Of a DNA stretch of 64,000 bases, positions 1,412 through 64,000 are shown in pieces. Source of the DNA: Nitrospiraceae bacterium (GTDB taxonomy: Bacteria; Nitrospirota; Thermodesulfovibrionia; UBA6902); assembly GCA_003599505.1 (NCBI GenBank), contig QZKO01000053.1, forward strand, positions 3,378 to 67,377. The letters are read 5' to 3'. Position numbers and translations under genes: made by a program. Positions within the stretch are counted from its first letter, which is position 1. Each line of letters opens with the position of its first letter. A model generated the notes under the pieces. That model saw nothing but the letters and a program-made list of their open reading frames with translations. It did not search any database and was not told the origin of the DNA.

Positions 1412-1961
1412 AAAATTTTTAAAACTATTATTATTTGTAGCGGTCTTTGCCGCAATCGGGGCCGGCGGGGCGTATCTGTTTTTTGGAAAGACTGATTCCC
1501 TAAAAACAGGCAAGGCGCCTTCTCCTGCGGAAAAGAGGATTACAGAAGAGGAGGAACACTCCCTCTTTCCGATGCCTTCTTTTGAAGACCAGCTTCTAAA
1601 TGAGGCCAAGCTGACACTGGAAAATCTTGATATAAAATTGGGGAAGGTCACATGGGTGCACTCCGATTCCGTTGATAAAGGTAAGGTTATCGCCCAGAGA
1701 CCATTGCCGGGGAGCATCAGGGGGAAGGAGGTAAATTTTCTTGTCAGTCTCGGCCCGTACGATGTTATTTACAGATGTCCGTCTTTTATTAACATGAAGA
1801 TAGAGGATGCCCGCATCTTGTCGGAAAATCTGGGAATAAAACTGGTTGAACAGAATGAAGGGACAAAGGTGGCGTCCCAGACACCGGAAGAAGGGACTAT
1901 TATAAGAAAAGGCGATTCTGTCGAGGTCACGCTCGGCAGCGGCAGGTGGATGTGGTTTTAA
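1404..1961 (+). CDS. Membrane-anchored PASTA-domain protein
   Basis: N-terminal TM helix followed by PASTA-like repeats (KVIAQRPLPGS...VNFLVSLGP). It overlaps the fmt stop by 8 nt. Confidence 0.5.
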   Translation: MFKKFLKLLLFVAVFAAIGAGGAYLFFGKTDSLKTGKAPSPAEKRITEEEEHSLFPMPSFEDQLLNEAKLTLENLDIKLGKVTWVHSDSVDKGKVIAQRPLPGSIRGKEVNFLVSLGPYDVIYRCPSFINMKIEDARILSENLGIKLVEQNEGTKVASQTPEEGTIIRKGDSVEVTLGSGRWMWF

Positions 1962-1995
1962 GCTGATAGCTCAGAGCTATCAGCTAATAGCTGAT
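1961..1995. repeat. 35-bp heptanucleotide array AGCTGAT AGCTCAG AGCTATC AGCTAAT AGCTGAT
   Basis: Five tandem 7-mers with an AGCT core read directly in the gap between the PASTA gene stop and the rpe RBS. The first four units also form a perfect palindrome. Confidence 0.8.
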
Positions 1996-13057: not shown

Positions 13058-13124
13058 AAGAACGAGGGGCAATAGGCGATGGGTAATAGGCTATGGGAAA
13101 AGATTTATTCTTATCGCCTATAAT

Positions 13125-15972: not shown

Positions 15973-17289
15973 TCAAAATTTGAACTGGGGCATCCTGAAT
16001 TTTCCGCTCTTAACCCTCTTCAGCATCTTTTTCATTTCCATATGCTGCTTCATCAGCCTGTTTACGTCGGCAACGCTGGTCCCGCTGCCGTCTGCAACCC
16101 TTTTTTTACGGCTGCCGTTCAGGATGACAGAATTCTTTCTTTCAGGCATTGTCATTGAATTGATGATCGCCTCTATCCTGGCAAACGCCCTGTCGTCGAT
16201 ATTTATCCCTTTTATCTGCTTGCCGAGCCCCGGGATCATGCCGAGGATGTTTTCAAGGGGACCCATCTTCTTGATCTGTTTAATCTGGTTTTTAAGGTCT
16301 TCAAAGGTAAAGCTGTCTTTTCTGAGTTTCTCTTCCAGTTTAAGCGCTTCTTCCATATCGACAGCTTCCTGCGCCTTTTCAACAAGAGTTACCACATCTC
16401 CCATTCCCAGGATCCTTGAAGCCATTCTCTCTGGATGGAACGGTTCAAGAAAGTCGATCTTTTCGCCTACGCCGATTAATTTAACAGGTTTCCCGGTTAC
16501 AGAAGAAATAGACAGCGCGGCCCCGCCGCGCGCGTCCCCATCCATTTTTGTAAGGATGACCCCATCGATGTCAAGTCTGTCATTAAAAGATTTTGCGATA
16601 TTTACGGCATCCTGTCCGGTCATGGCGTCGGCAACCAGGAGGATTTCTTTCGGCTTCGCTGTTTTTTTCAGCTCCTCAAGCTCCTCCATTAACTGTTCAT
16701 CCATATGGAGTCTGCCGGCGGTGTCAAGTATTACAACATCTCTGCCTTCCCTGTTTGCCTTCTGGAGCGCTTCCGGGAAAATCCTCACCGGGTCGTCGCC
16801 CGGTCCTGTTGCGTAAACAGGCACGTCAATCTGCGCGCCAAGTGATTTTAACTGGTCGATTGCAGCCGGTCTTCCTGTATCCAGGGCCACAAGCATGGGT
16901 CTTCTTCCGTCTTTTTTAAAATTGTTTGCCAGTTTTGCGGAAGTTGTTGTTTTGCCGGAGCCGTGAAGACCCACAAGCATAAGGATAGTAGGGGGGTTCG
17001 GGGCGAGGTTGATCTTGCGGAGTCCGTCGCCCATGAGGGCGCAAAGCTCATCATGGACAATCTTTACGACCTGCTGCCCCGGGGTAATACTTTCAATCAC
17101 TTCCTTGCCGACAGCCCGCTGCTTTACCTTTTCAGTAAAGTCTTTCACTACCTTGAAGTTGACGTCAGCCTCAAGGAGCGCCATCCTGATTTCCTTCATG
17201 GCCGCGGCAACGTCTTCTTCCCTCAACAGGCCACGGCCCTTCAGTTTCTTGAATATGCCTTCTAATTTTTCTGATAATGCATCGAACAC
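15973..17289 (-). CDS. ffh: Signal recognition particle protein Ffh
   Basis: N-terminal MFDALSEKL, a GTPase domain and an M-domain. Confidence 0.9.
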   Translation of the reverse strand: MFDALSEKLEGIFKKLKGRGLLREEDVAAAMKEIRMALLEADVNFKVVKDFTEKVKQRAVGKEVIESITPGQQVVKIVHDELCALMGDGLRKINLAPNPPTILMLVGLHGSGKTTTSAKLANNFKKDGRRPMLVALDTGRPAAIDQLKSLGAQIDVPVYATGPGDDPVRIFPEALQKANREGRDVVILDTAGRLHMDEQLMEELEELKKTAKPKEILLVADAMTGQDAVNIAKSFNDRLDIDGVILTKMDGDARGGAALSISSVTGKPVKLIGVGEKIDFLEPFHPERMASRILGMGDVVTLVEKAQEAVDMEEALKLEEKLRKDSFTFEDLKNQIKQIKKMGPLENILGMIPGLGKQIKGINIDDRAFARIEAIINSMTMPERKNSVILNGSRKKRVADGSGTSVADVNRLMKQHMEMKKMLKRVKSGKFRMPQFKF

Positions 17290-17313
17290 TTGAACCCTCG
17301 GCCCCTTGAACCC
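17289..17313. repeat. Two copies of CTTGAACCC (reverse complement GGGTTCAAG) in the ffh-trxB gap
   Basis: Direct reading. The same motif recurs at 31561-31590. Confidence 0.6.
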
Positions 17314-17316
17314 TTC

Positions 17317-19573: not shown

Positions 19574-20044
19574 AGCTGTCCCTTCTTTGTCCCCGATAAA
19601 CATATCTTTCCTGTCCACTTTTTTACCTTTGCCGGACAAATAACGATTTTTCTTGACAGCCCACATATCGGTTGTGGTATAAAATCGCATCACGTCTTAA
19701 GATCAGTTTTTCGGGAATTACAGTTTTCTGTGAGAGGGAGAAGACTGTATGGGGACTGAAGAATCCGGGCATCAATCCTTTTGAATCTTGAATTTCAAAT
19801 TTTCAATTTTTAAATTCCGGTTGGGCCGGGCAGGAGGGGAAGATGAAGAAGGGGCTATCGCTTTTAATAATTGTTTTGTCAGCCGTATTGCTGCTTTGTG
19901 GCAAGACCGGCAAGACCGGTGTCAGGTCTTTGATTTTAGAATTTTAATATAAGGCCTTACCAAACAAGACCAGAAAATTTTGAAATAAACGGCTCAAGCG
20001 TATAGAATATTACATCTTTCAATTTCAAAGGGGGATATGGAAAG

Positions 20045-20908
20045 ATGGCAAGACCGTTGCGTATTGAATACGAGGGAGCGGTGTATCATGTGACGGCAAG
20101 AGGTAATGAGCGTAAGGCGATTTTCAAAGAAGACCCGGATCGCAGTCTGTTTCTGGACATTCTGTATAAGGCAAACAAGAGATATAACATTCTGTGTCAT
20201 GCCTATTGTTTGATGGATAATCACTACCATCTGATTATGGAAACGCCTGAAGGGAACCTGTCAAAAGGGATGAGGCAGCTAAATGGCGTGTACACTCTGA
20301 TGTTCAATAAAGAGCACAGGCGGGTGGGGCATATTTTTCAGGGCAGATATAAAGCGATATTAATTCAGAAGGAGAGCCATTTGCTTGAAGTATGCAGATA
20401 TGTTGTATTAAACCCGGTAAGGGCACGGGCGGTAGAAAAGCCTGAGGAATGGAAGTGGAGCAGTTATCAGGCAACATCCGGGAAAAGCAAGCCGCATGAG
20501 TGTCTGAGTAGGGACTGGATACTCGGGCAATTTGCAGAGAGCAGGATGGCGGCGCAGAAGAGATATGAAGACTTTGTGATGGCAGGCATAGGAGAAAATG
20601 GAATCTGGAAAAAGGTCAAGGGCCAGAGTCTTTTGGGAGATGATGATTTTGTCGATACTTTGATCACGTATGTAAAAGGATATGAAGAAATGGTGGAAAT
20701 TCCTAAAGTCCAAAGATATATGAGCAGGCCGGAGATGAGGGAATTATTTAAAGAGACTGTTTTTAATAACAGGCAATCCAGAAATAAAAAGATTTTGGAA
20801 GCCGTATACAAATATGGTTATACACAGAAGGAAGTCGCTGACTATCTGGGGAAGCATTATACTACGATAAGCGGGATAATCGGCAAAATTCTAAAATCAA
20901 AGACCTGA
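20045..20908 (+). mobile_element. IS200-like Y1 (HUH) transposase, COG1943/RayT-like, with C-terminal DnaA-C-like HTH
   Basis: YHVTARGNERKAIF...YCLMDNHYHLIMET (HUH) ...GHIFQGRYKA, with a C-terminal KKILEAVYKYGYTQKEVADYLG HTH. Confidence 0.7.
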
Positions 20909-20987
20909 CACCGATTCCCGTGACGGAGTTGTTGGAGGCGCAGCGGGCGGAGCGGGCGGAGCGGGGGCAGGTGGTGTTACCGGCGGA

Positions 20988-24129: not shown

Positions 24130-24759
24130 TTATCTTTTTAAAAATTCCCCTTTTACTGTTTCTCTCGCTTTCTCCCTTATATCCTCCGCTCCGAATATCT
24201 CCGATATCATCGCAATGCCGTAAGCTCCTGCTTCCTTCGCTTCCTTAATTTTATTGTTTTTTATCCCGCCGATTGCGAAGACCGGGATATTTACTTTGCC
24301 GCAAACAGTTTTCAAAATATCTATCCCTACGGGCTTGCCGTATTTCAACTTTGACGGGGTCCTGTAAACCGGACCGAGGGTTATAAAATCCGCTCTTGCC
24401 TTCTCCGCTTCTTTTGCCTCTTTCAATGAATGCGTCGAAACGCCGATCATCAGCTTATCTTTCACAACCCTCCTCACCGCGTCCGCGGGGATGCTGTTTT
24501 GTGTCAATTGAACTCCGTCCGCGCCGGCAGCAAGAGCGATATCAAACCGGTCGTTGATAAACAGTCTCGCGTTGTATTTTTCAGTAAGTTTTCTCATCTT
24601 ATGTGCCAGTGTTAACAGCTCGCGGGTCCCCAGGTCTTTTTCTCTTAGTTGAATTGCCCTTACACCGCCTTTCAGCGCCTTTTCAACAGAAGCGGTCAGC
24701 GAATAGCGGTCAGCGGTCAGCTTTCTGTCGGTGATGAGATATAGTCTAAAATCAATCAT
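24130..24759 (-). CDS. thiE: Thiamine-phosphate synthase
   Basis: MIDFRLYLITDR with a TMP-TENI fold. Confidence 0.85.
   Translation of the reverse strand: MIDFRLYLITDRKLTADRYSLTASVEKALKGGVRAIQLREKDLGTRELLTLAHKMRKLTEKYNARLFINDRFDIALAAGADGVQLTQNSIPADAVRRVVKDKLMIGVSTHSLKEAKEAEKARADFITLGPVYRTPSKLKYGKPVGIDILKTVCGKVNIPVFAIGGIKNNKIKEAKEAGAYGIAMISEIFGAEDIREKARETVKGEFLKR
24691..24725. repeat. 35-bp heptad array AGCGGTC AGCGAAT AGCGGTC AGCGGTC AGCTTTC inside thiE
   Basis: Direct reading. It encodes residues KLTADRYSLTA near the ThiE N-terminus. Confidence 0.7.
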
Positions 24760-25574: not shown

Positions 25575-25775
25575 TTATCCTCCTCCCACAAAATTCACGA
25601 TTTCAACAGAATCACCGTCCTGCAGGACATGATTGGAGAAATTGCACTTCTTGATAATATTCAGATTAATTTCAACTGCAACACGCGCTGGTTCAATCTG
25701 CAATGTTTTCAGTAAATCGGCAACCGTGCTGCCGTCCTTAATTTCCGAATCTGTTCCGTTTAATTTCAGTTTCAT
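25575..25775 (-). CDS. thiS: Sulfur-carrier protein ThiS
   Basis: 66 aa ending in GG. Confidence 0.8.
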   Translation of the reverse strand: MKLKLNGTDSEIKDGSTVADLLKTLQIEPARVAVEINLNIIKKCNFSNHVLQDGDSVEIVNFVGGG

Positions 25776-25780
25776 AATTT

Positions 25781-25815
25781 AGCTATAAGCTGATAGCTGT
25801 AAGCTGTCAGCTAAA
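25781..25815. repeat. 35-bp heptad array AGCTATA AGCTGAT AGCTGTA AGCTGTC AGCTAAA
   Basis: It fills the thiH-thiS gap exactly, with the same AGCT core and 5x7 architecture as the array at 1961. Confidence 0.8.
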
Positions 25816-27153: not shown

Positions 27154-27300
27154 CAAAAAAACCGCATCCCCGTAAACATCTTCCCGGGAATGCGGTCAAC
27201 GCTCTGCTTTTCCCTTTCCTTCGCCGGTATTATCCGGTTCAGGTTCAGAGGGTCATCCCGATACTCCGGGAACTCTCAGGCTCTGATGCCTCCCCTAGGG
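27154..27300 (-). promoter_or_regulatory. TPP (THI-box) riboswitch with terminator hairpin
   Basis: The minus strand reads GGGGAGGC..GCCUGAGA..GAUGACCC..GAACCUGAACCGGAUAAUACCGGCGAAGGAA, followed by a hairpin CCGCAUUCCCG/CGGGGAUGCGG and a U7 tract. Confidence 0.85.
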
Positions 27301-27439
27301 TAAGTTAAGTATACTTCCGTAAACAAAGACGTGTCAAGCAGCCCTCCTGAAGTGCTTAACTTATAAAGATAAAAATCCGAAAACAATATTCAGCAGGGCT
27401 TTGATTAAAATGGAAACATAAAATAGCGGGGAGGGTCCA

Positions 27440-27870: not shown

Positions 27871-29790
27871 CTACTTGCGCTTCACTAAATTAAGCAGCCC
27901 GCCGGCAAGGATAATCTGTCTCTGTCTTTCAGACAGGCCGTGTTCAGCCTTATAGGTCACACCTGTGTTCACATCCCTGAACATGACCCCGGGAGATTCC
28001 CTTACGTCTTTCGCGAGAGAAGGGAATTCCATTTCAGCGTCCTGCTGCAGTGCGTCATAAACATCCGCGGGGACTGTAAGGGGAAGGATACCGAAGTTTA
28101 TCAGGTTGTCCCTGTGGATACGGGCGAATGATTTTGCCAGGACAATCTTGATACCAAGATACATCGGCGCAATCGCGGCATGCTCCCTGCTTGAGCCCTG
28201 CCCGTAATTGTTCCCTCCCACAACTACACCGCCGCCTGCGCTCTTCGCCCTTGACGGAAATGAAGGATCAAGCTTTGAAAACACATACTCCGATATGGCG
28301 GGGATGTTCGATCTCAGGGGAAGAATCTTTGCGCCCGCGGGCATGATGTCGTCGGTGGTGACATTGTCTCCTACTTTCAGAATTATCTTTGCCGTCAGTG
28401 ATTCCTCAAGCGCGCCCCTGACCGGCAGGGGTTTGATATTGGGTCCTCTCTCAACAACCACCTTATCGGATTTCTTTAAAGGCGGGACAATCATTGAGTC
28501 ATCAACTGTGAATTTTTCAGGCAGCGCGACCCTTGCCCCCTGACCCTTGACCCAGTTTTTGGGGTCCGTTATCTTGCCTGTAATAGCGGAAACCGCCGCT
28601 GTTAAAGGACTGCACAGGTAAACTTTGTCATTTGCCGTGCCGCTTCTTCCGGGGAAGTTCCTGTTGAACGTCCTGAGTGAAACAGCTCCCGTGGGCGGGG
28701 CCTGTCCCATGCCGATGCAGGGGCCGCAGGCCGGTTCAAGCACCCTTGCGCCGGCGGAGATAATGTCTGCCAGCGCGCTGTCCTTTGTAATCATATGCAG
28801 CGCCTGCCGTGAACCGGGGCTTATCGTGAGGCTGACATCAGGGTGGACTTTGTGTTTTTTAAGTATCTTTGCCGCAAGTATCAGGTCCGCGTACGATGAA
28901 TTGACGCAGCTCCCGATGCACACCTGTTTTACCGGCATACCTTCAACTTCTTTCACCCTCTTTACGTTATCAGGGCTTGAAGGGGCCGCAATCAGCGGTT
29001 CAAGTTTATCAAGTTCAATAATAACCTCTTCGTCATATCCTGCATCAGCATCTGCTTTGAGCTCTGTCCAGTCCGCCAGGCGCTTCTGCGCTTTCAGGAA
29101 AGCCCTGGTCTGTTCATCCGAGGGGAATACCGATGACGTCGCGCCGAGCTCGGCCCCCATATTGGTTATCGTCGCCCTTTCAGGCACTGTGAGGTTTTTT
29201 AATCCGTTGCCGCCGTACTCCATGATTTTCCCGACCCCGCCCTTTACAGTCAGGCGTCTGAGGACTTCAAGGATGATATCTTTCGCGGTAACGCCGTTTC
29301 TGAGCTTGCCGGTCAGTTTCACATGGACGACCTTCGGCATGACAAGATAAAACGGCTCTCCAGCCATAGCGAGCGCAACGTTCAAGCCTCCCGCGCCGAT
29401 GGCCAGCATGCCGGCAGCGCCCGCGTTCGGCGTATGGCTGTCCGAACCGAGCAGGGTCTGCCCCGGTTTCGCGAACCGTTCAAGGTGCACCTGATGGCAG
29501 ATACCGTTGCCGGGTCTTGAAAAATAAATACCGTATTTGGCTGCTATGGTCTGGAGGAACCTGTGGTCATCTGCGTTCTCAAAACCGGTCTGAAGAGTAT
29601 TGTGGTCAATATAACTGACAGACAACTTTGTCCTGACTTCCGGTATCCCCATAGCTTCAAATTCAAGATAAGCCATCGTGCCGGTTGCGTCCTGCGTCAA
29701 AGTCTGGTCAATGGATATGGCTATCTCCTCACCGGGTCTCAGGTTTCCCGATACAAGATGTGTTGAAATCAGCTTCTGCGCAACGTTCAT
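27871..29790 (-). CDS. Aconitase-family hydratase (639 aa)
   Basis: Aconitase-family sequence throughout, including SDSHTPN..GxGG-like segments. Confidence 0.65.
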   Translation of the reverse strand: MNVAQKLISTHLVSGNLRPGEEIAISIDQTLTQDATGTMAYLEFEAMGIPEVRTKLSVSYIDHNTLQTGFENADDHRFLQTIAAKYGIYFSRPGNGICHQVHLERFAKPGQTLLGSDSHTPNAGAAGMLAIGAGGLNVALAMAGEPFYLVMPKVVHVKLTGKLRNGVTAKDIILEVLRRLTVKGGVGKIMEYGGNGLKNLTVPERATITNMGAELGATSSVFPSDEQTRAFLKAQKRLADWTELKADADAGYDEEVIIELDKLEPLIAAPSSPDNVKRVKEVEGMPVKQVCIGSCVNSSYADLILAAKILKKHKVHPDVSLTISPGSRQALHMITKDSALADIISAGARVLEPACGPCIGMGQAPPTGAVSLRTFNRNFPGRSGTANDKVYLCSPLTAAVSAITGKITDPKNWVKGQGARVALPEKFTVDDSMIVPPLKKSDKVVVERGPNIKPLPVRGALEESLTAKIILKVGDNVTTDDIMPAGAKILPLRSNIPAISEYVFSKLDPSFPSRAKSAGGGVVVGGNNYGQGSSREHAAIAPMYLGIKIVLAKSFARIHRDNLINFGILPLTVPADVYDALQQDAEMEFPSLAKDVRESPGVMFRDVNTGVTYKAEHGLSERQRQIILAGGLLNLVKRK

Positions 29791-31551: not shown

Positions 31552-31560
31552 TAAGACAAA

Positions 31561-31590
31561 GGTTTCAAGGGTTCAGGGGTTCAAGGGGAA
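31561..31590. repeat. GGTTTCAAG GGTTCAGG GGTTCAAGG tandem repeat
   Basis: Direct reading. Same motif as at 17289. Confidence 0.6.
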
Positions 31591-34590: not shown

Positions 34591-34875
34591 ATGAAAATAG
34601 TAATTATTGTAATTGTTGTGGCTATTCTGGGTTTACTCCTGGTTTACAGCCAACAGCATGATATGCCTGCGCAGACAGTCGGTCATCCTGCGGCAGGCGG
34701 CTACGGCGCTGCTCCTGCGGCAGGCGGCTATGGTTCCGCCCCGTCAGGTGGTTATGGGCACGCGCCCGCGGGCGGTTATGGAGCGCCCGCTGTCGGCGGA
34801 TACGGCGCGCCTTCAGGCGGGTATGGAGCGCCTTCAGGCGGGTATGGAGCGCCGTCAGGCGGTTACGGACATTAA
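34591..34875 (+). CDS. Small TM-anchored Gly/Tyr-rich repeat protein (GGYGAPS x8)
   Basis: N-terminal TM helix followed by 21-bp tandem DNA repeats. Confidence 0.45.
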   Translation: MKIVIIVIVVAILGLLLVYSQQHDMPAQTVGHPAAGGYGAAPAAGGYGSAPSGGYGHAPAGGYGAPAVGGYGAPSGGYGAPSGGYGAPSGGYGH

Positions 34876-35455: not shown

Positions 35456-36874
35456 TTGCCGCGTGAACGGTATAAAGTGAAAAATTTAAATGACAAAGGG
35501 ATTGTGGTGTTAGGCGGCGGACTCGCGGGTCTTTCTTCCGCCTTTACCCTGGCAAAAGCGGGACAGCCCGTCAAGGTTTTTGAAAGTGATTCCGGAGTAG
35601 GCGGGCTTTCAAAAACAATGCATTACGGCGACTTCAGATTTGACCTCGGCGGGCACAGGTTTCTCACAAGCAATGAACAAACCGAAAATTTTGTAAGGGA
35701 CCTGCTTGACGGTGAATACCTGACCGTGCCCCGCAAGAGCAAGATATTCATGAACAACAGGTTCTTCGACTATCCCCTCAAGCCCGCGAACGCCCTTCTG
35801 GGGCTCGGCATGCGCACAACGTTCAGGGCCCTTGCCGATTACGGCAGGGAAAAAATAAAAAATTCTTTCAGGCGGCCGGCGCATGTTTCCCTTGAGGACT
35901 GGGTGGTGGCCCATTTCGGCAGGACCATGTTCAACATTTACTTCAGGGAATACAGCGAGAAGGTTTGGGGGCTGGAATGCAAAAGCATCAGCGAAGAGTG
36001 GGTGTCAAAAAGGATAGAAGGGCTCTCCCTCGGAGTGGCGATAAAGAACGCGCTGTTTAAATTCAACGGTAAAAAGGTCCCCACGCTGATTGATAAATTC
36101 ATTTACCCCGCGCTGGGGATCGGGCGGATATCCGACAGACTGAAAGAAGAAATAGAAAAGGGCAACAGCGTGTCGACCAGCACGAGGGTAACGCGCATTG
36201 ATCATAAGGGCCCTTTCATCACAGGCATAGCGGCAAAAAATTGTGAAAGGGCTTACGACGTCAAAGGCCGCGAATTTATCTCCAGCATTCCTCTGACAAA
36301 CCTTGTAAAAATGCTCAGCCCCGCTCCACCCGGCGAAATTATCGAAGCCGCGTCAAGGCTGAGATACCGGGACCTTGTAATCGTTACGATACTGCTTGAT
36401 AAGGAAAGGGTGACGGACCTTACATGGCTCTATCTTCCGGAAAAAAATATGCCGCTGGGCAGGATCCATGAGCCGAAGAACTGGAGCCCGCGCATGGCGC
36501 CGGAGGGGAAGACCAGCGTTGTCGCCGAATACTTCTGTTTCAGGGAAGACCGCATATGGAATTCAACAGACGGAGAGCTCACGTCGATTACAGTAAGAGA
36601 GCTGGAGAAACTCGGTTTTATCAGGGAGAATGAAGTCCTTGACAGTTGCGTCGTCAGAGTGCCGAACGCGTATCCGGTATTTGAAGTCGGCTATAATGAG
36701 CATTATTCAGGGATTCTTAAATATCTTGAGAAATTCAAAAACCTCCACATAATCGGCAGAAGCGGCATGTTCAGATACTACAACATGGACCGCGCTATTG
36801 AGACCGGGATAGAAACGGCTGAAAATATAATTCAAAATTCAAAACTCAAAACTCAACGCCGGGATTCTTTATGA
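35456..36874 (+). CDS. FAD-dependent oxidoreductase (amine-oxidase / phytoene-desaturase-like)
   Basis: VVLGGGLAGLSSAF dinucleotide-binding motif. Confidence 0.6.
   Translation: MPRERYKVKNLNDKGIVVLGGGLAGLSSAFTLAKAGQPVKVFESDSGVGGLSKTMHYGDFRFDLGGHRFLTSNEQTENFVRDLLDGEYLTVPRKSKIFMNNRFFDYPLKPANALLGLGMRTTFRALADYGREKIKNSFRRPAHVSLEDWVVAHFGRTMFNIYFREYSEKVWGLECKSISEEWVSKRIEGLSLGVAIKNALFKFNGKKVPTLIDKFIYPALGIGRISDRLKEEIEKGNSVSTSTRVTRIDHKGPFITGIAAKNCERAYDVKGREFISSIPLTNLVKMLSPAPPGEIIEAASRLRYRDLVIVTILLDKERVTDLTWLYLPEKNMPLGRIHEPKNWSPRMAPEGKTSVVAEYFCFREDRIWNSTDGELTSITVRELEKLGFIRENEVLDSCVVRVPNAYPVFEVGYNEHYSGILKYLEKFKNLHIIGRSGMFRYYNMDRAIETGIETAENIIQNSKLKTQRRDSL
36830..36857. repeat. Heptad array ATTCAAA ATTCAAA ACTCAAA ACTCAAC
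   Basis: It encodes the C-terminal tail of the oxidoreductase, 14 nt before the next start codon. Confidence 0.65.
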
Positions 36875-38343
36875 AATGCGTCCTTATCATACCCGCGTGG
36901 GCCCCTGAAGATATATTTTCTTCCAAGACCGCGGGCTCGCAGATAAACTACTGGCAGCCGCTTGGCACCCTTTACGTCGCCTCCTCATTGATAAAAGCAG
37001 GGCACGAAGTGAAATTCCTTAACGGCGCTTTCATGAAGCATGACGAAATCATGAAAGCGGTTTCATGCTTCAGCCCTGAATTCGTCGGCATTTATTCCAC
37101 GACATTCGGATGGAAGAAGGCGATGTTTACGGCGTCGGAGATAAGAAAGTCAGAAGTCAGAAGTCAGAAGTCAGAAGTAAATGACTACACTTTCATCGCC
37201 GTCGGCGGACCATATCCGATTGCGATGCAGGAGAAATGCCTCGAAGATTCCCCGGATGTAGACGCGGTAATTACTGGAGAGGGAGAAATTACCGTTGTAG
37301 AAATGCTGGATAGATTGTCCCGGGGCAAAAGTTTTGAGGGTGTTGAAGGAGTTGTATTCAGAGAAAACGGGAAGATAACAAAAAACCCTCCGAGGCCTCT
37401 TGTCACCGATGTTGATTCCATCCCCTTTCCCGCGCGTGAGCTGCTGGGGGACGCGCGCAGGTACATCCCTCCTCCCGCGACTTACAGGCGAAAACCGGTA
37501 GCCGTCATCATGACCGCGCGCGGCTGCAACAGGAGGTGTCTCTTCTGTTTTCAGATCGATAAGGAAAGAAAACTCGGCATCCGCTATCGCAGCGTTGAAA
37601 ACGTCATGCAGGAGATAGAGCTCTGTTTAAACCAGGGATACCGGGAGATAAAGTTCATTGACGACACGTTCGCCGCGGACTATGACCGGGCCATAAAGAT
37701 AACGGAAGAGATAAAAAGGCGCAAGCTTGATTTCACGTGGTTTGCCTCAGCGTGTGTCAACCAGGTGGATAAACCCCTGCTTAAGGCTTTCAAAAACGCA
37801 GGATGCTGGGCCCTGCTCCTCGGCGCTGAAAGCGGTGTGCAGAGAAATCTGAATACAATCAGGAAAGGGATAACGCCGGAGCAGACCCGCAGGGCGGTAA
37901 AAGCGGCAAAAGAAGCCGGCATAACAGTCTATACCCCGTTCCTTTTCGGCATACCGGGGCAGACCTTTGAGGACGGACTGAAGACAATCGAATTTGCCTG
38001 TGAGATAAACCCCGACATAGCGAACTTCCACGCCCTTACGCCTTTTCCGGGCACAGAGCTTTATGACAATATCGAAAAATACGGAACAATGTCTGCCGAC
38101 CTGACGGATTTCACCTACCAGGGAGCCGCCTTTGTCCCTTACACAATGACAAGGGAAGAAATCGCGGAACTCAGGCAGCTCGCGTTCAAAAGGTTTTATT
38201 CGAGGCCGTGTTTTATTGTAAAACGGATACTCGGCCTCAGAAGCTTTCATGATCTTAAAGCTGCGGCTAAAGGATTCAGGAGCCTCTTCTGGTTGTGGCT
38301 TAATAATGATGTCTTCCGCCGAAGCGGAAATACCGCGTCCTGA
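36871..38343 (+). CDS. B12-binding radical-SAM protein
   Basis: CNRRCLFC (Cx3Cx2C) with an N-terminal B12-binding-like domain. Confidence 0.65.
   Translation: MKCVLIIPAWAPEDIFSSKTAGSQINYWQPLGTLYVASSLIKAGHEVKFLNGAFMKHDEIMKAVSCFSPEFVGIYSTTFGWKKAMFTASEIRKSEVRSQKSEVNDYTFIAVGGPYPIAMQEKCLEDSPDVDAVITGEGEITVVEMLDRLSRGKSFEGVEGVVFRENGKITKNPPRPLVTDVDSIPFPARELLGDARRYIPPPATYRRKPVAVIMTARGCNRRCLFCFQIDKERKLGIRYRSVENVMQEIELCLNQGYREIKFIDDTFAADYDRAIKITEEIKRRKLDFTWFASACVNQVDKPLLKAFKNAGCWALLLGAESGVQRNLNTIRKGITPEQTRRAVKAAKEAGITVYTPFLFGIPGQTFEDGLKTIEFACEINPDIANFHALTPFPGTELYDNIEKYGTMSADLTDFTYQGAAFVPYTMTREEIAELRQLAFKRFYSRPCFIVKRILGLRSFHDLKAAAKGFRSLFWLWLNNDVFRRSGNTAS
37149..37176. repeat. Heptad array AGTCAGA x4 inside the rSAM gene
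   Basis: Perfect 7-bp tandem. It encodes SEVRSQKSEV. Confidence 0.8.
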
Positions 38344-41178: not shown

Positions 41179-42471
41179 TTAAAACTCGTACCTCATCTGG
41201 ATGTAGATATTATCATTCTTGTCCAATTGCCCGAACTGGTCCCATTCCTCTCCGCCGCCGAAAATATCGGCCCCGGCTGCCGCCCATATATTATCGGTAA
41301 AATTGTATTTAACCTCAGGGTTCAACATGTAGTCGCGAGCTGCCGGGCTGAAAAAGGAAAAGAACGAGAGCCTTAGGGTTTGATGGATCAGGAATTGAGT
41401 CAGCCTTACCGTGACAAGGTCATGTATCTTTTTTTCCAGCGGGAACCCTGACGGAAGATTTGCTTTATAAGCGGAGTAATCATGCATGTATTCGAGATAG
41501 TACTGAAGCCCCAGCGTAAAGTCTTCCCACAACTGTCTCTGATAACCCGTCAGGAACCTTGTTTGCGGATTCGGGGACATCGGGTCTGTTCCGTCCCTGT
41601 CTTCCCTCGAATCATAGTATCCCGCCTCAAGACTGAAAACACCCTCCAGGGCCCTTCCCTGAAGGCTTGCTCCGTAAACGGAAAGTTTGGGGAAAAACAG
41701 GTCAATCCGCGTTGGCGCGGTCAGGCTGTCAGGAAGCATGGAAGGCTGCCTGAAGAACCCGCGGTAAAAATAAAGCGACGCATCAAAACCCGCTACATCA
41801 CGATATAGCCTCAGGGCGACTTCGGTGTTATTAAAAGTGCTTGAAGGCTTTTTCTCTTCCCTGTCCGTGATCAGAGGCATCGGATCAAACAGGTGAAATC
41901 TGTCAGGATCAGGGAAATTGTTCTCTTCAAAGAATGGGATGATAATCAATTCAGCAGAGGCAAAAGACGGATACATGCCGAGCTTGATGCCGTCTATGCC
42001 TTTTTTAAGGTATTCCAAAGGCCTTCCTGAAAAGAACGCCTCGAAGTCCTTGGGGAAGACATCGTTTATGAAGATCAGATCTCCAAGCCCCCATGTAATT
42101 ATCTGTCTGCCGATCCTTACGTCATAGCTTGAAGATGTGAGGTCGGCGTATCCTTCCCTTAATTCCAGTTTGGATGCGTCGTCAATATGGTCATAAAAGA
42201 CATCGGTTTTCATGAAGAAGCGCAGTGGTTCTACGTCTGTTTCGATCTTTAACTGGGCCCTCTCCCCGGCCCATTTGAAGTCGCTGCCGTCGGGGTTTGA
42301 TGTATCGGTATTGACAGAGTAATTACCCTGAACAAAACCATGTAAAGAGACATCGGATGCAATGGCAGAAGACAGAAGACAAAGCACAGAACACAGAATA
42401 CAGACAACAGATAAAAAAGACTTGCTCTTGATTATTAATCGTTGATTGTTAGTTTTCAGCGTCTGCTTCAT
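41179..42471 (-). CDS. Outer-membrane beta-barrel protein (DUF1302-like)
   Basis: Signal peptide and a C-terminal aromatic Phe. Clustered with LolA-like and MMPL genes. Confidence 0.5.
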   Translation of the reverse strand: MKQTLKTNNQRLIIKSKSFLSVVCILCSVLCLLSSAIASDVSLHGFVQGNYSVNTDTSNPDGSDFKWAGERAQLKIETDVEPLRFFMKTDVFYDHIDDASKLELREGYADLTSSSYDVRIGRQIITWGLGDLIFINDVFPKDFEAFFSGRPLEYLKKGIDGIKLGMYPSFASAELIIIPFFEENNFPDPDRFHLFDPMPLITDREEKKPSSTFNNTEVALRLYRDVAGFDASLYFYRGFFRQPSMLPDSLTAPTRIDLFFPKLSVYGASLQGRALEGVFSLEAGYYDSREDRDGTDPMSPNPQTRFLTGYQRQLWEDFTLGLQYYLEYMHDYSAYKANLPSGFPLEKKIHDLVTVRLTQFLIHQTLRLSFFSFFSPAARDYMLNPEVKYNFTDNIWAAAGADIFGGGEEWDQFGQLDKNDNIYIQMRYEF

Positions 42472-43354: not shown

Positions 43355-45733
43355 TTATTTTCGCCCCTCACACTTATCACAAAACAACCAACCCTGAAAT
43401 AACGTTATAAGCGCCGGGATATATATTATCGTCATGATTGCGCTTAACAGCATCATGCTGACGATGAAAGCTCCCACAGTGATATATGGTGTTAAGGGCG
43501 CGAACATCATCACGGAAAAAGATGCCGCAAACAGCACAGCGTTGCGCATTATTCCCTTGCCCGGTCTCGCGGCAGTCCATAATAAAGACTGAGTTATGAG
43601 TTCAGAGTTTGGAGTCTGGAGTTCTTTGTCTTCTGAACTCTTAACTCTTAACTCTAAACTCTCAACTATTTTTTGTCTGAACCTGCCTATAAAATGTATC
43701 GCAAAGTCCACTGCCATGCCGAGGCTGAGACATGAAAGGACGGATATCGGCATGTCAAAATCTTTCCCCATATATCCGACAACTCCGTAAATCAGCAGGA
43801 TAGTGAAAAGGAGAGGGGCATATCCGACAAGGGCCCATTTTATGGACCGGAAGTTGACTGCAAGGATGATAAACACAGTGATTAACGCAATGATAAATCC
43901 TCTCAGCATGTCATAAAGGACCTCATCATTCCACACAAGATTGAAATAGGCAATGCCTGCCGGTTTAAATTCCATCTCCATTTGCAGGGGCAATTCATGA
44001 ATTGCCCCTGCTTTATATTCCTCTACCGCCTTTATCACATCACGCATGGCCTGGGCGTCCCACGTTTTCAGTTGGACCCAGATATTCGCCTTTCTGAACG
44101 GATAGTCGACGACGTTGTCCAGGTCAGACGGTTTCGCGGACATACTGAACAAGAAGAGATACTGTCCTATTGTCTCTTTTGTTTCAGGGACCGTATCATA
44201 TTCCGGATCATCATCGTGAAGGACTTTGTTTATCCTCTTTACGTAATCCACAACCGAACTCGTTTTCCCGACGACTGAAAGCTTTTCAAGATGTCTTTGA
44301 AGTCCTTCAATATACCGCATAGCCTCAGGCGTCTTTATATAATCATCTTCTTTCGACTGCGCCACTATGTAGCCGAGCGATGTGCCGCCGAGGGCCTGAT
44401 TTATGACATTGTCGGCAATACGCACTTCACTGTCTTTCTTGAACCACTCCACCAGGTTGTTATTGACTACTATCTTTGTCAGTCCGAAGACTGCTATCGA
44501 AAAAAGCACAAGGCCGACAAAAACCGTGCTCTTTGGTTTATGCGCGCCGAAACCGGCCAGGCTTTTCAGGAATTGCGACGTCCTGCTGAATTCAATATCC
44601 TCACTCTTTGACGCCTTCTCAATATGTTCCTCTTTCACAAAAGTAAACATTGCGGGTATGAAACTGAAGCTTAAGACCCTCAACATCACAGTGCCGAAGG
44701 CCACGAGCCCGCCGAAAACCTTGACAGGAATGATATTCATAAACAGAAGCACGCCGAACCCCACTGCTGTCGCAAGAGCGGTATATCGCACGGGACGGCT
44801 CACAGCGTTCATCGTTTCAATTATTGCCGTTTTTTTATCCTTAGTCTCTCTATAGCGAAAGTAGAATTCATTGAAGATATGAATGCTGTCGGTCGCTATA
44901 GCCATCAAAAAGACCGGGGCCATGGAGCTCATAATGTGAACAGGGAATCCGAGCGCTATCAAAAGCCCCATGCTCCAGACGATGCTGACCATTGCGTCCA
45001 TCATGAGCGTGACAGAAAGGAAAAGGTCCCTGAACATGAGGTATCTGATAAGGAGCATCACCATTCCCGCTATCGGGGCAAAGACCGCCATGAGCTTAAA
45101 CATTTCAGCGCCGAAGGTATCTCTTGCAACAGGGTCTCCTGCTATATAATATTTTTCATCGCCTTTCTCTTTGCCGGCAATCTCTCTTATTTTGTCCGCT
45201 ACTTCTTTGCCGTTTGCGCCTTTTTCAAGAGGGACATAGATGGCGGTGTTTTTTCCGTCTTTTGAGATGATGCGATCAATAAAAAGCGGATTTTCAAAGA
45301 GCATCTTCCGGAGCTTCCGCATCTCCGCGTCATCTTCCGGAACTTCGGTCATAAGCGGCGCTACCTTTAAGGTCCCTGCCTCAGCCGATACATTGGTAAT
45401 GGTAGGAAAGCTGTTGACGTCCCTTGCGGCAACGCCCTTTATCTTCAGGATTTCATCGGTGATATGGATTATCTTTGAGAGTGTCCCTTTGTTGAGTATT
45501 CCCTTTTCGTTTACTATCCCGACTACTATCATGTCTTCATAGAGGCCGAATGTCTTTTCCACTTCATCATTCCATACCCTGACATCCGAAGTCTCCGGGA
45601 GCATGCTCTTCGGGTTTGTGTCAGTCCTGATCTTCGGGAACTGGGTCGCAAACGCAAGGGTAATGAGAATTGTTAAAAGCACCACTAATTTAGGGTGGTT
45701 TACAGAGAAATTGACAAGAAAAGACTTTTTCAT
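43355..45733 (-). CDS. RND-superfamily MMPL exporter (HpnN-like), 792 aa
   Basis: Twelve TM helices with two large periplasmic loops. Confidence 0.7.
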   Translation of the reverse strand: MKKSFLVNFSVNHPKLVVLLTILITLAFATQFPKIRTDTNPKSMLPETSDVRVWNDEVEKTFGLYEDMIVVGIVNEKGILNKGTLSKIIHITDEILKIKGVAARDVNSFPTITNVSAEAGTLKVAPLMTEVPEDDAEMRKLRKMLFENPLFIDRIISKDGKNTAIYVPLEKGANGKEVADKIREIAGKEKGDEKYYIAGDPVARDTFGAEMFKLMAVFAPIAGMVMLLIRYLMFRDLFLSVTLMMDAMVSIVWSMGLLIALGFPVHIMSSMAPVFLMAIATDSIHIFNEFYFRYRETKDKKTAIIETMNAVSRPVRYTALATAVGFGVLLFMNIIPVKVFGGLVAFGTVMLRVLSFSFIPAMFTFVKEEHIEKASKSEDIEFSRTSQFLKSLAGFGAHKPKSTVFVGLVLFSIAVFGLTKIVVNNNLVEWFKKDSEVRIADNVINQALGGTSLGYIVAQSKEDDYIKTPEAMRYIEGLQRHLEKLSVVGKTSSVVDYVKRINKVLHDDDPEYDTVPETKETIGQYLFLFSMSAKPSDLDNVVDYPFRKANIWVQLKTWDAQAMRDVIKAVEEYKAGAIHELPLQMEMEFKPAGIAYFNLVWNDEVLYDMLRGFIIALITVFIILAVNFRSIKWALVGYAPLLFTILLIYGVVGYMGKDFDMPISVLSCLSLGMAVDFAIHFIGRFRQKIVESLELRVKSSEDKELQTPNSELITQSLLWTAARPGKGIMRNAVLFAASFSVMMFAPLTPYITVGAFIVSMMLLSAIMTIIYIPALITLFQGWLFCDKCEGRK
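43591..43667. repeat. 77-bp heptad-built hairpin (GAGTTnn x5 / nnAACTC x5) inside the MMPL coding sequence
   Basis: The imperfect inverted arms encode LELRVKSSEDKELQTPNSELI in frame. Confidence 0.75.
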
Positions 45734-60940: not shown

Positions 60941-63283
60941 TCATATTTTCACGCCCTTAAGCAGCGCGGAGTTGCTGACAACCGAGAGCGAACTCAATGC
61001 CATTGCCGCCGAAGCCACAATTGGGTTCAGCAATCCGAATGCCGCGATGGGAATGCCGATGCTGTTGTAAATAAGCGCCCAGAAGAGATTCTGTTTAATC
61101 TTGCGCATGGTTGCCCTGCTCAGCTTTATGCCTTTAATAACATCCCTCAAATCGTCCCTTACGAGAATAATGCCGCCGGTCTCTTTTGCAACGTCAGAGC
61201 CGCTTCCGATGGCTATTCCGATGTCAGCCTGGGCAAGGGCCGGGGAATCGTTGATCCCGTCGCCTACCATCGCGACGACTTTGCCCTGAGACTGAAGTTC
61301 TTTGACCACTTTCGCCTTGTCCCCGGGAAGGACATTTGATATGATCCTGTCAATGCCGACCCTTGACCCGATGGCCTTTGCAGTGCGCTCATTGTCCCCG
61401 GTCAGCATCACAACTTCCACTCCTTCAGCCTTTAAGCCCTTAATCACTTCTTCCGCGTGTTCTTTAAGTGTATCGGCGACCGCGATGAATCCGGCGAGCT
61501 TTTTATCATGAGCGACGATCATTACTGTATTGCCCTTTTCTTCAAGTCCTGAGACGAGCTTCTCGTCGGCCTCAATTGAGACGCCGTTTTCTCTCATCAG
61601 TTTCCTGTTGCCGACAAGTATTTCCCGGCCCTGATATGAGACCCTTATCCCGTGCCCGGGTATCGCCTCGAATTTTTCAGCATCCGGGATGTCAAGTCCC
61701 TGCATCTTCGCCCTCTTTATTATCGCCTCGGCAAGCGGGTGCTCCGAACCCTTTTCAGCAATTGCAGCAAACTGTAATATTTCTTCACTCTTAACTTCTG
61801 CCCCTTGCCCCTCAATAATTTCCGTTACCTCCGGCTCTCCCTTTGTCAGGGTCCCTGTTTTGTCAAAGACTACCGCATTTAATTTCTCCGCCCTTTCAAG
61901 GTATTCGGCGCCCCTTATGAGTATCCCTAATTCCGCGCCCTTGCCTACGCCGACCATCAGCGCAGCAGGCGTTGCAATCCCGATGGCGCAGGGACAGGCG
62001 ATGATGAGGACTGCGACAAAGGACAAAAGGGCTGCCGTAGAATTCCCTGTTATTATCCATAACGCGGCCGATAGAAATGCAATACCGACAACTGCCGGAA
62101 CGAAATATGACGCAATCCTGTCAGCGAGCCTCTGGATTTGAGAGGATGACGTCTGGGCCTCTTCTACCATCTTTATTATCTGGCTCAGGGTTGTGTCCGC
62201 GCCGACCCTTGTCGACCTGAACTTGAAAGAACCTACCTTGTTTAGCGTCCCCCCTATGACTTCATCTCCTGCTTTTTTCTCCACCGGAACGCTCTCGCCG
62301 GTGATCATCTTCTCATCAATTGACGAATGTCCGTCAATAACGACGCCGTCAGTCGGTATCTTCTCGCCCGGCCTGACAACTACTATTTCATCCGCCATAA
62401 GCTGCTCTGCCTGGATTTCAATTTCTTCTTCCTTCCTTATCACCCTCGCCGTCTGCGGTTTTAAATCGAGCAGCTTGCGTATGGCGGCGGAGCTGCGCTT
62501 CTTGATTATCTCTTCCATATATTTGCCTAAAAGGACAAAGGCAATTATGATCGCTGAGACCTCAAAATAAACATTCTTTTCCTCAACAGGCAGCACGCCG
62601 GGGAAGAAGACCACGAACGCGCTGTAAATATACGCGGTCGATGTGCCGAGCGCTATGAGGAGGTCCATATTCGCCACGCGGTCTTTGATTGCGTGCCAGG
62701 CCCCGACAAAAAAACTTTTGCCGCCGAAGATCATGATCGGCGTCGTGATAATAAAAAGCCATACCCCCCATGTAAACCACGGAAGCCAGGGTACCGGCAC
62801 CCACGTGAGGACTGTCGCCCCTGCCGCAAGACCAAGGAACACCGCGGCCCTGAAGATCGCAAGGGCTACTACGCCTGTGAGGGCAATAGCTACCCGCCTC
62901 TTCATGTCCCTGAGCTCTTCCTCAGGCGCCTCAAAGGTCTTCACGCAGCTTTCAGCGCAAAAATAATACGTCCTGCCCCCGACCTCCCTTTTTATGGAAC
63001 GTTCTTTCGGGATGACCATCCCGCACACGGGGTCTTTCGCCATGCCTTCTTTCTTTTCTTCCTGCCCCTTGTCCCTTGCCTCTTGCCCCCTGCCTCCGAG
63101 GAAAGATTCAGGGTCTTTATCGAATTTCTCTTTGCAAACAGGCGCGCAGAAATAATAGACACTCCCTTTGTATTCCGAAGAACCGGCTGCGTCCTTTTTA
63201 TCTATTGTCATCTTGCAGACAGGATCGACGGCCTGTCCGGTTGTCACCTGCTTGCCGATGCCGAGCTTTATTGATTTCTGCAT
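60941..63283 (-). CDS. copA: Copper-translocating P1B-type ATPase with two N-terminal YHS/TRASH domains
   Basis: DPVCKM...YYFCAPVC and DPVCGM...YYFCAESC, then CPC, DKTGTLT and [10 protein letters not shown]. Confidence 0.85.
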
Positions 63284-63702: not shown

Positions 63703-63719
63703 ATCAAACCTCCTTTTTG

Positions 63720-63746
63720 CAGGGGCGTATTGCGATACGCCCCTAC
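63720..63746. repeat. REP-like hairpin CAGGGGCGTATTGCGATACGCCCCTA
   Basis: 10-bp stem with the same GGGGCG/CGCCCC ends as the hairpin at 42485. Confidence 0.55.
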
Positions 63747-63895: not shown

Positions 63896-63910
63896 CACCT
63901 CCCTTTTTTG

Positions 63911-63936
63911 TAGGGGCGACCCGCCGGGTCGCCCTA
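63911..63936. repeat. REP-like hairpin TAGGGGCGACCCGCCGGGTCGCCCTA
   Basis: Imperfect 11-bp stem with the same family ends. It overlaps the stop of the partial gene. Confidence 0.5.
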
Positions 63937-64000
63937 CAGATTCTTCCTCAGTTTAGGCACAAACATCGGCGTCTCTTCCATATAGCGTTTATAGTCATTT
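63924..64000 (-). CDS. 3' end of a gene entering from beyond the window (..NDYKRYMEETPMFVPKLRKNL*)
   Basis: The minus-strand frame is open from the window edge to TAG at 63924. Confidence 0.3.

Follow-up and report, generated by a model that had tools for sequence, protein, structure and literature searches.

Short heptanucleotide tandem arrays at gene junctions and within enzyme genes of a Thermodesulfovibrionia lineage

Knowledge of heptanucleotide repeats such as the short tandemly repeated repetitive (STRR) sequences, TAACTGA, and GGGAATC dates back to 1990; to our knowledge, no established account exists of how they arise or what they do. The STRR heptanucleotides were described for heterocystous cyanobacteria (Mazel et al., 1990, as cited in PMC4692102). 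Direct repeats of TAACTGA are found in marine Beggiatoaceae, some cyanobacteria, and Bacteroidetes; they often replace a Shine–Dalgarno sequence, may extend over the stop codon of the preceding gene, occur occasionally in frame within open reading frames (ORFs), and differ between strains by insertions or deletions in 7-nt steps (MacGregor, 2015, PMC4679880). Heptameric intergenic simple sequence repeats (SSRs) include GGGAATC in Xanthomonas and GGGGAYT in Nostoc (Rehm et al., 2015, PMC4692102), and slippage in a 7-nt register of the polymerase has been proposed for this type of repeat (Mrazek, 2007, as cited in PMC4679880 and PMC4692102). Here, we characterize tandem heptad arrays in a 64-kb stretch of DNA from a Nitrospiraceae bacterium (contig QZKO01000053.1, positions 3,378 to 67,377; termed the window in the following) and in its relatives. 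The arrays are an STRR/TAACTGA-like class of heptanucleotide repeats with distinctive traits, namely a design of core and spacer, a peak at about five units, many unit families, a hairpin subclass, and constraint at the nucleotide level within enzyme genes. In literature searches, no heptamer repeats were found to be reported for Nitrospirae, Nitrospirota, Thermodesulfovibrio, or Magnetobacterium; the coverage of these searches was incomplete and an earlier mention elsewhere is possible.

The initial annotation of the window had described three 35-bp arrays of five heptads with an AGC(T) core, which were found exactly as read there: AGCTGAT, AGCTCAG, AGCTATC, AGCTAAT, AGCTGAT at 1961–1995; AGCGGTC, AGCGAAT, AGCGGTC, AGCGGTC, AGCTTTC at 24691–24725; and AGCTATA, AGCTGAT, AGCTGTA, AGCTGTC, AGCTAAA at 25781–25815. 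Tandem Repeats Finder (TRF) assigned a period of 7 to all three. The gene contexts, that is, two gene junctions and one site read in frame, also agreed with the annotation. The first array (plus strand) occupies the spacer between a PASTA gene (ORF 1404–1961) and rpe (2011–2664); the last A of the TAA stop codon of the PASTA gene is the first base of the array, and the Shine–Dalgarno sequence of rpe, AAGGGAGG, follows directly 3′ of it. The array at 25781–25815 (minus strand) lies between thiH, whose TAG stop codon is located at 25811–25813, and thiS (66 amino acids, ATG start codon at 25775). It had been stated to fill this gap exactly. The gap is indeed exactly 35 nt long, but the array is shifted by 5 nt and overlaps the thiH stop codon, which falls within the first sense-strand unit. 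The third array (minus strand; sense units AGCTGAC, CGCTGAC, CGCTATT, CGCTGAC, CGCTTCT) lies within thiE (24130–24759), and its translation, KLTADRYSLTAS, is located in the loop that follows strand β1; the segment KLTADRYSLTA corresponds to residues 13–23. The order of the thi operon is thiH-thiS-thiG-thiE-thiC, and a thiamine pyrophosphate (TPP) riboswitch was detected at its head (27199–27306, minus strand; Rfam RF00059, 70.2 bits).

The common architecture claimed for the three loci extends past the core. In sense orientation, the arrays at 1961 and 25781 are identical in 29 of 35 positions (83%). The order of units (GAY, xAS, ATY, xAY) is shared by the three loci and the orthologous array of the relative L005, with 54 of 90 matches compared to 39.2 ± 4.1 in permutations, of which 36 out of 20,000 scored as high. 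For the hairpin-forming copies, this shared order amounts to stem complementarity, with GAT pairing with ATC. The pattern AGCTN3AGCTN3AGCT, searched with up to one mismatch, had six matches, all of them in the 1961 and 25781 loci, versus 0.05 expected. A column-based detector (at least four copies and four invariant columns; null model of 50 dinucleotide shuffles) identified 12 period-7 arrays in the window versus 0.04 in the shuffles; both comparisons rule out chance. The periods 5, 6, and 8 to 12 gave zero or one array each, so that period 7 alone was enriched, in line with the TRF results and with the 7-nt tandem repetition that defines STRR sequences. A column-agnostic lag-7 detector found nine arrays in the window and none in shuffles. 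Runs longer than predicted from composition, that is, long SSRs in the sense of Mrazek (2007), are thus present both in the window (12) and in the pooled data (46 arrays of at least four copies versus 0–0.2 in dinucleotide shuffles). The proposed restriction to an AGC(T) core did not hold. Besides the three genuine AGC(T) loci, two of which are of the AGCT type, the window contains nine heptad arrays whose cores are different, as well as two octamer arrays; the window cores are AGCT, CGCT, AAGTCAG, GAGTT/AACTC, TCAAAAY, CAGAANA, TTGCC, and TTGAA. Many further copies, on whose existence the annotation had made its proposal depend, were found in the window and its relatives.

All close homologues of the ThiE and radical-SAM proteins encoded in the window stem from metagenome-assembled genomes (MAGs) of the Nitrospirota class Thermodesulfovibrionia, to which the source organism also belongs; the window proteins themselves are each recorded on one contig only. 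The ingroup sample comprised the thiE neighborhoods of 16 relatives, four radical-SAM neighborhoods, and nine PASTA-rpe neighborhoods. In 351 kb of this DNA, 58 arrays were detected, compared to none in 59 kb of outgroup DNA and none in 50 kb of E. coli K-12; three outgroup loci (Thermodesulfobacteriota, Latescibacteria) and one distant locus were without arrays. The heptad arrays are a lineage-wide phenomenon in this Thermodesulfovibrionia clade. For the PASTA gene, a metagenome scan retrieved distant relatives only (43–60% amino acid identity), which did not suffice for a covariation analysis; at the PASTA-rpe junction of L025, an array of a different unit occupies the same junction. The PASTA proteins of the relatives L024–L031 are about 234 amino acids long over the same 185 query residues, compared to the window ORF 1404–1961; either the window protein is without about 49 amino acids or the relatives carry an insertion.

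A typical array is about 35 nt long, with a mode of four to five units of 7 nt, and combines an invariant core of 4–5 nt with two to three variable positions per unit. The excess over shuffles in 263 kb was about 13 arrays with three copies, 20 with four, and 23 with five, compared to 1, 1, 0, and 1 with six, seven, eight, and nine copies, respectively. The distribution is peaked rather than geometric, and stricter criteria gave the same picture. Most arrays keep four to five of the seven columns invariant; perfect arrays are (AAGTCAG)x4.6 in the window, (TTAGTTC)x5.5 in L020, and the longest one, (ACGAATG) with at least nine copies, at a contig end in L011. Six substitutions separate the thiH-thiS array of the window from that of L005; they hit 6 of 15 spacer positions and none of the 20 core positions. 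The density of arrays is 6.6 times higher in non-coding DNA than in coding DNA (0.643 versus 0.098 per kb). Short gaps between co-directional genes, the main location, harbor 24 arrays; gap arrays begin on the upstream stop codon or 0–6 nt past it, and the distance to the next start codon is 0–85 nt. Where the gap is shared with a second repeat element, the heptad array takes the stop-proximal side. Stop codons in all three sense frames are present in 17 of 28 non-coding arrays versus 1 of 30 ORF-embedded arrays, a difference that is to be expected given that 7 and 3 share no common factor.

With regard to folding, two structural classes can be distinguished. Self-complementary cores (AGCT, AAATTT) lead to strong hairpins, and non-palindromic arrays are unstructured (z ≥ 0). 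Within the first array, positions 1961–1985 form a perfect 11-bp stem (AGCTGATAGCT/AGCTATCAGCT) with the loop CAG; the fold of the array has a free energy of −19.1 kcal/mol (z −2.8 for the sense and −3.6 for the antisense strand). The array at 25781–25815 likewise folds into an 11-bp stem–loop (z −2.0 sense, −3.6 antisense), and the thiE array is unstructured (z about 0). Two inverted arrays at 43588–43671 form a long RNA hairpin of −35.4 kcal/mol (z −6.7). Terminators and promoters were considered for 1961–1995 and rejected, since nothing terminator-like and nothing convincingly promoter-like overlaps the array and the hairpin is without a U-tract. A scan of the whole window at the Rfam gathering thresholds returned the TPP riboswitch and one tRNA only, and no hit on any array.

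The resemblance to cyanobacterial STRR sequences and to the repeats of large sulfur bacteria, which the initial annotation had suggested, is borne out, with several differences. As in STRR sequences, the 7-nt units are arranged head to tail, several unit families occur per genome, and most arrays are intergenic. Unlike STRR sequences, the arrays described here reside in Nitrospirota, are short (four to five units) and degenerate outside the core, and a sizeable fraction of them is translated. Exact tandem dimers of the STRR units CCCCAGT, TTGGTCA, and CAACAGT were absent from the 351 kb; the only near match is (TTCGTCA)n in L011, one mismatch from STRR2 (TTGGTCA). With the TAACTGA repeats, which comprise 2–6 copies per set, the arrays share the heptameric unit, the location in operon spacers, the overlap with the upstream stop codon at some loci, and occasional copies read in frame, and their copy number falls in a similar range. 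However, TAACTGA repeats have one dominant unit and are placed in forward orientation directly 5′ of the start codon, whereas the Nitrospirota arrays consist of many units of the core and spacer type and are anchored at the upstream stop codon. TAACTGA itself gave no tandem dimers and no trimers with up to one mismatch per unit in the 351 kb, and its one-mismatch relatives (6/7 identity) are AGCTGAT/AACTGAT, TAACTCT, and CAACTGA in L011. The GGGAATC and GGGGAYT repeats, about 90% of which are intergenic, are similarly found between co-oriented genes and nearer to the end of the upstream ORF, and their position is kept between relatives while length and sequence vary (PMC4692102). They are G-rich and form G-quadruplexes, in contrast to the diverse units of the Nitrospirota arrays, which are not prone to G-quadruplex formation, include some hairpins, and show a narrow peak in copy number. 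By unit sequence, the arrays belong to none of these three kinds of repeat, and they add a new host phylum.

The array in thiE had been taken for an inserted element, an interpretation that is rejected by the orthologue alignment. Twenty ThiE orthologues with 68–80% identity have a near-identical segment of the same length (e.g., KLIADRYSLTAA or KLTADRCSLTAA), and in the Pfam TMP-TENI alignment, residues 6–188 cover profile positions 1–180, leaving no space for an insertion. A clean in-frame insertion of 35 nt is in any case impossible. The same ThiE residues without repetition of the DNA, which would have spoken against a repetitive element, were not encountered, as the orthologues keep the DNA periodicity. 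It is retained in the seven closest genomes, and in farther thiE orthologues, the site is occupied by other units, namely TCACGCG in L006, GCAACTC in L008, GAAACTC-like ones in L009, and CCGCAGC in L015. Some orthologues are longer by seven amino acids (21 nt, three units) at this site, and some are without an array. In the window, the third unit (ATT) and the A-to-C changes in the core are what the avoidance of in-frame TGA and TAG stop codons requires. Two other coding arrays are, according to homologue alignments, genuine in-frame insertions. The perfect (AAGTCAG)x4.6 array at 37144–37182 (plus strand) in a gene for a B12-binding radical-SAM protein encodes RKSEVRSQKSEVN and adds seven amino acids to a loop of 5–7 amino acids in most of 119 orthologues; its length is identical in five genomes. 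The two adjacent inverted arrays mentioned above (43588–43671, minus strand; sense GAGTTnn followed by nnAACTC) are read in frame in an MMPL/HAE3 transporter gene (amino acids 688–716) and encode a loop insertion of 12–18 amino acids. In general, the parts of proteins that the in-frame arrays encode are loops, linkers, tails, and a signal peptide.

Two side observations concern ThiE. At the thiG-thiE junction of L008 (3353–3393) and of L015, the thiE start codon apparently lies within the heptad unit ATGAGTT (MSSELIDF...), so that the array would supply the start codon and the first residues of the protein. The ThiE orthologues P0017 and P0080 contain an insertion of eight amino acids (ASLIMRHA and ASCITHHA) at a second ThiE loop (alignment A1, columns 132–139), whose resemblance to the translated ACTCRTC heptad family suggests another array-derived insertion.

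The coding arrays are constrained at the nucleotide level above the synonymous background. The identity of third codon positions is 0.71 in the thiE array versus a mean of 0.46 elsewhere in the gene (0 of 175 windows as high) and 1.00 in the radical-SAM array versus 0.49 elsewhere (0 of 457 windows as high). Between relatives with near-saturated synonymous sites, arrays keep their position at a given junction or loop. At the same time, orthologous arrays switch the unit in all copies together, which is indicative of concerted evolution. In thiE, a concerted C-to-T change (GACC to GATx) affected three units of differing codon phase; at the thiG-thiE junction, L006 and L016 differ by TCAGAAG versus TCAGCAT in every unit, with the flanks conserved; L037 carries two adjacent GCAGAAG units; and in the gap upstream of thiE, ACGAATT x5 in L009 is replaced by ACGAATG with nine or more copies in L011. 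Nearly all arrays of the thiG-thiE junction keep AG in the same register beside the conserved flank TAAAGACAG. The same units are reused at independent loci, among which nine identical-unit pairs were counted (0.64 expected), and 35 pairs are within one mismatch (12.3 ± 3.8). The families AGCTNNN, AAGTCAG, GAGTTNN, ACTCGTC, AATTACG, and AAATTTC recur at unlinked loci and across genomes; AAGTCAG is shared by the radical-SAM gene, purL, and the thiG-thiE gap, and ACTCGTC is found in thiE and at two sites in purL of one MAG. L020 and L021, the only pair that represents two samples, have identical arrays.

We consider it probable that the arrays are a lineage-specific class of STRR-like heptanucleotide tandem repeats, grown and homogenized locally, with a placement that is filtered by selection. 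The arrays would arise and stay periodic by local slippage or by homogenization of the gene-conversion type in a 7-nt register, and selection would then decide on the sites of survival. Stop-bearing units would bring stop codons into three frames and therefore be restricted to spacers; stop-free units could be taken up into the reading frame, the length then changing by 21 nt. On polycistronic mRNA, the arrays may act as spacer elements. This role as spacer or hairpin at the RNA level, which we only infer, is the weakest step of the explanation. The AGCT stem–loops, including those at 1961–1995 and 25781–25815, could govern the processing or stability of the transcript or insulate neighboring cistrons, and the non-palindromic arrays, being free of structure, could provide standby sites for ribosomes or binding sites for OB-fold proteins (S1/Csp). 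The copies in thiE, the radical-SAM gene, and the MMPL gene would be domesticated or tolerated by-products.

Several points weigh against this explanation. The hairpin class and the unstructured class would require separate roles, and the better-folding strand of the thiH-thiS hairpin is the antisense strand in the window and the sense strand in L005, a switch that weakens an RNA-specific interpretation. The peak at four to five copies and the identical copy number in four genomes and two samples are unlike slippage microsatellites. Identical units at unlinked loci go beyond purely local slippage and hint at copying between loci or at a sequence-specific factor. In addition, much of the sample of about 350 kb surrounds two operons, so that the loci are partly non-independent, and the ORF calls in the relatives are crude, some "coding" arrays in fact being located 5′ of the true start. 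Since peaked length, invariant cores, and unit reuse exceed what simple slippage explains, mobility of the REP/MITE type (repetitive extragenic palindromes; miniature inverted-repeat transposable elements) and a binding protein with a 7-nt register were kept as rival explanations.

That the arrays are mobile or trans-mobilized miniature elements of about 35 nt, inserted as a whole, is possible, though rather unlikely. The candidate enzyme would be an HUH tyrosine transposase such as a REP-associated tyrosine transposase (RAYT), a bona fide representative of which is encoded in the window at 20045–20908 (plus strand; NCBIfam NF047646, 92.4 bits versus a cutoff of 80; Pfam Y1_Tnp domain; weak sigma70-region-4-like helix-turn-helix at the C-terminus). 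Like REP and REPIN elements, the arrays measure about 35 nt, lie in operon spacers, and have dispersed family copies. REP elements are imperfect palindromes of 20–40 nt with tens to hundreds of near-identical copies per genome; the 64-kb window has two copies of the AGCT type. The constant size of the arrays with a peaked copy number, near-identical 35-mers at unlinked loci (29 of 35 positions for 1961 and 25781), the AAGTCAG element at three loci of one MAG, and the genuine insertions that the radical-SAM and MMPL genes show when compared to orthologues are all consistent with mobility, as is the palindromic AGCT class, which is positioned where REPs sit. REP-like GC-rich palindromes even occupy the same gaps and loops alternatively. 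However, the chemistry of REP and RAYT needs a hairpin, and REP-like hairpins are formed by the AGCT and AAATTT classes only, most arrays being direct repeats without one. Neither target-site duplications nor a guide tetranucleotide were seen; the first units blend into the flanks (AGAAAGT-CAGAAGT; GACAGTC-AGAAGTC), as predicted for growth in situ, and orthologous arrays swap their unit in place between conserved flanks. The RAYT gene itself is flanked by a perfect 29-nt inverted repeat (19917–19945 and 20885–20913) that is unrelated to the heptad arrays and has no further copy in the window. A direct link between RAYT and the heptads was dropped, as these arms are confined to the flanks of the RAYT gene. 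The separate palindromes of the type GTAGGGGC...GCCCCTAC fit REPs better and are the likelier RAYT substrates. It appears doubtful that the arrays are binding sites for a trans-acting protein that binds single-stranded nucleic acid in a 7-nt register (multi-domain S1, cold-shock domain, or other OB-fold protein), in which case core, period, and copy number would persist owing to selection for binding and not to mutation bias. The invariant core with free spacer positions resembles protein-binding repeat arrays, and the number of about five units, a conservation that exceeds the synonymous rate, the repeated use of a few unit families, and the consistent sense-strand orientation of the GAGTT and AAGTCAG families would agree with it. 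Such a protein was likewise proposed for the TAACTGA repeats, and CspB binds heptamers with one protein per unit (PMC4679880). On the other hand, the recognition of many cores would take many specificities or a single, very loose specificity, arrays within the coding regions of enzymes have no obvious regulatory logic, the AGCT hairpins would occlude single-strand binding, and no candidate protein was identified in this analysis. Similarly improbable, in our estimation, is a broader version in which the arrays are both product and target of a dedicated trans-acting system, either a reader with a 7-nt register or a writer producing blocks of about five units by templated synthesis or gene conversion. 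Such a system would account for the fixed array size (about 35 nt), the invariance of the cores, the unit reuse, and the conservation above synonymous sites, and also for the patchy occurrence of heptamers in filamentous cyanobacteria, Beggiatoaceae, some Bacteroidetes, and Thermodesulfovibrionia. If it existed, essential enzymes would routinely gain new peptide segments from the arrays.

Phase variation at the hmw promoters of Haemophilus is driven by heptanucleotide SSRs. Contingency repeats of this kind, in which copy-number slippage switches the expression or frame of adjacent or host genes, are a very improbable explanation for the arrays despite this precedent and despite the long perfect (ACGAATG) array in L011. 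Contingency SSRs are perfect repeats of strain-variable copy number in or upstream of surface or virulence genes. The units described here are mostly imperfect, the copy number is constant across four genomes and two independent samples, and the hosts are housekeeping genes (thiE, rpe, aconitase, ffh), of which thiE, like the radical-SAM gene, would suffer a lethal frameshift upon a change by one unit. Least credible is the assumption that the coding periodicity reflects a selected 7-residue peptide repeat or chance, with no element at the DNA level. ThiE does contain an echo of seven amino acids (LTADRYS/LTASVEK), but a 7-residue repeat requires a period of 21 nt instead of 7, the third codon positions are the most conserved ones in the gene, the same units are present in non-coding spacers, and shuffles yield practically no arrays.

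The arrays offer an informative version of heptamer repeats because of their short, near-fixed length, the division into core and spacer, and their location at operon junctions whose orthologues are available for comparison in many MAGs. The in-frame copies in ThiE, the B12 radical-SAM protein, an RND transporter, CopA, and aconitase allow constraint at the DNA or RNA level to be separated from constraint at the protein level by codon-position statistics. Frozen third positions, concerted units, and unit reuse lead to the testable question of whether active homogenization or a trans-acting factor is responsible; a second one is whether heptad repeats are a steady source of sequence for protein loops and linkers. 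Experiments are feasible, as Thermodesulfovibrio includes cultured members. In practical terms, the arrays can mislead gene callers with respect to starts, stops, and C-terminal extensions, and they can break short-read assemblies.

The remaining arrays of the window are found in different contexts. A TCAAAAY array (36826–36859, plus strand) encodes the C-terminal tail NIIQNSKLKTQR of an amine-oxidase-like gene product at the junction with the radical-SAM gene; L020 has this array in decayed form, and L023 has none. A seven-unit array (42366–42416, minus strand; sense TCTTCTG-like) encodes the hydrophobic core FLSVVCILCSVLCLLSSA of a signal-peptide-like N-terminus in a 430-amino acid protein with no family assigned. 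In the gene for a copper P-type ATPase (CopA), an array with GGCARGR-like sense units (63060–63097, minus strand) covers the linker between two N-terminal metal-binding domains. The weak array of 3.7 units at 28525–28555 (minus strand; sense AAGGGTC) lies at the beginning of the linker between the aconitase domains (amino acids 412–422) and was rejected as an insertion, the protein being longer than its relatives by one amino acid only. An array with a TTGAA/TTCAA core (19779–19818) is located between divergent genes, at a distance of about 100 nt to the left of the left inverted repeat of the RAYT gene, and a period-7/14 array, CGATGGGCAATAGG x2.5 (13067–13100), lies between convergent gene ends. 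The two octamer arrays have the same architecture as the heptad arrays and are identical to each other in unit and sense orientation: AAGGGTTC x4 at 17284–17315 (minus strand) fills the 27-nt spacer between a thioredoxin-reductase-like gene and ffh, and AAGGGTTC x3.6 at 31559–31587 (plus strand) begins 7 nt past the stop codon of a rhodanese gene. The aconitase heptad AAGGGTC looks related to this octamer.

Other repeat types were noticed alongside the heptads. The GC-rich REP-like palindromes GTAGGGGC(N)GCCCCTAC constitute a second dispersed family, with copies at 43984–44011, 63719–63746, and 63910–63937 of the window, one of its copies lying inside the MMPL ORF, and further copies in the thi-operon gaps of L001, L002, L004, L006, L007, and L012. 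The radical-SAM loop GGFQTRPY or GRFKTCPY of many orthologues is apparently such a palindrome translated in frame (GGGTTTCAAACCCGCCCCTAC). A third palindromic element, (GTCATTCCCGCGAAAGCGGGAATCC...)ATTCCGGACAAGCCGGAATGAC, was observed in intercistronic thi gaps of L001, L002, L005, L009, L014, and L016; several repeat types use these spacers as landing pads. Near the RAYT gene, the 9-mer GGCAAGACC is tandemly repeated just left of the left inverted repeat (19900–19921) and occurs again at the start codon (20047–20059), and a period-9 repeat, GGCGCAGCG x3.8, directly follows the right inverted repeat (20937–20970). At 34762–34869, a tandem repeat of period 21/42, GCGCCCTCAGGCGGGTATGGA x5, is contained in a small ORF and presumably encodes a Gly/Tyr-rich peptide repeat.

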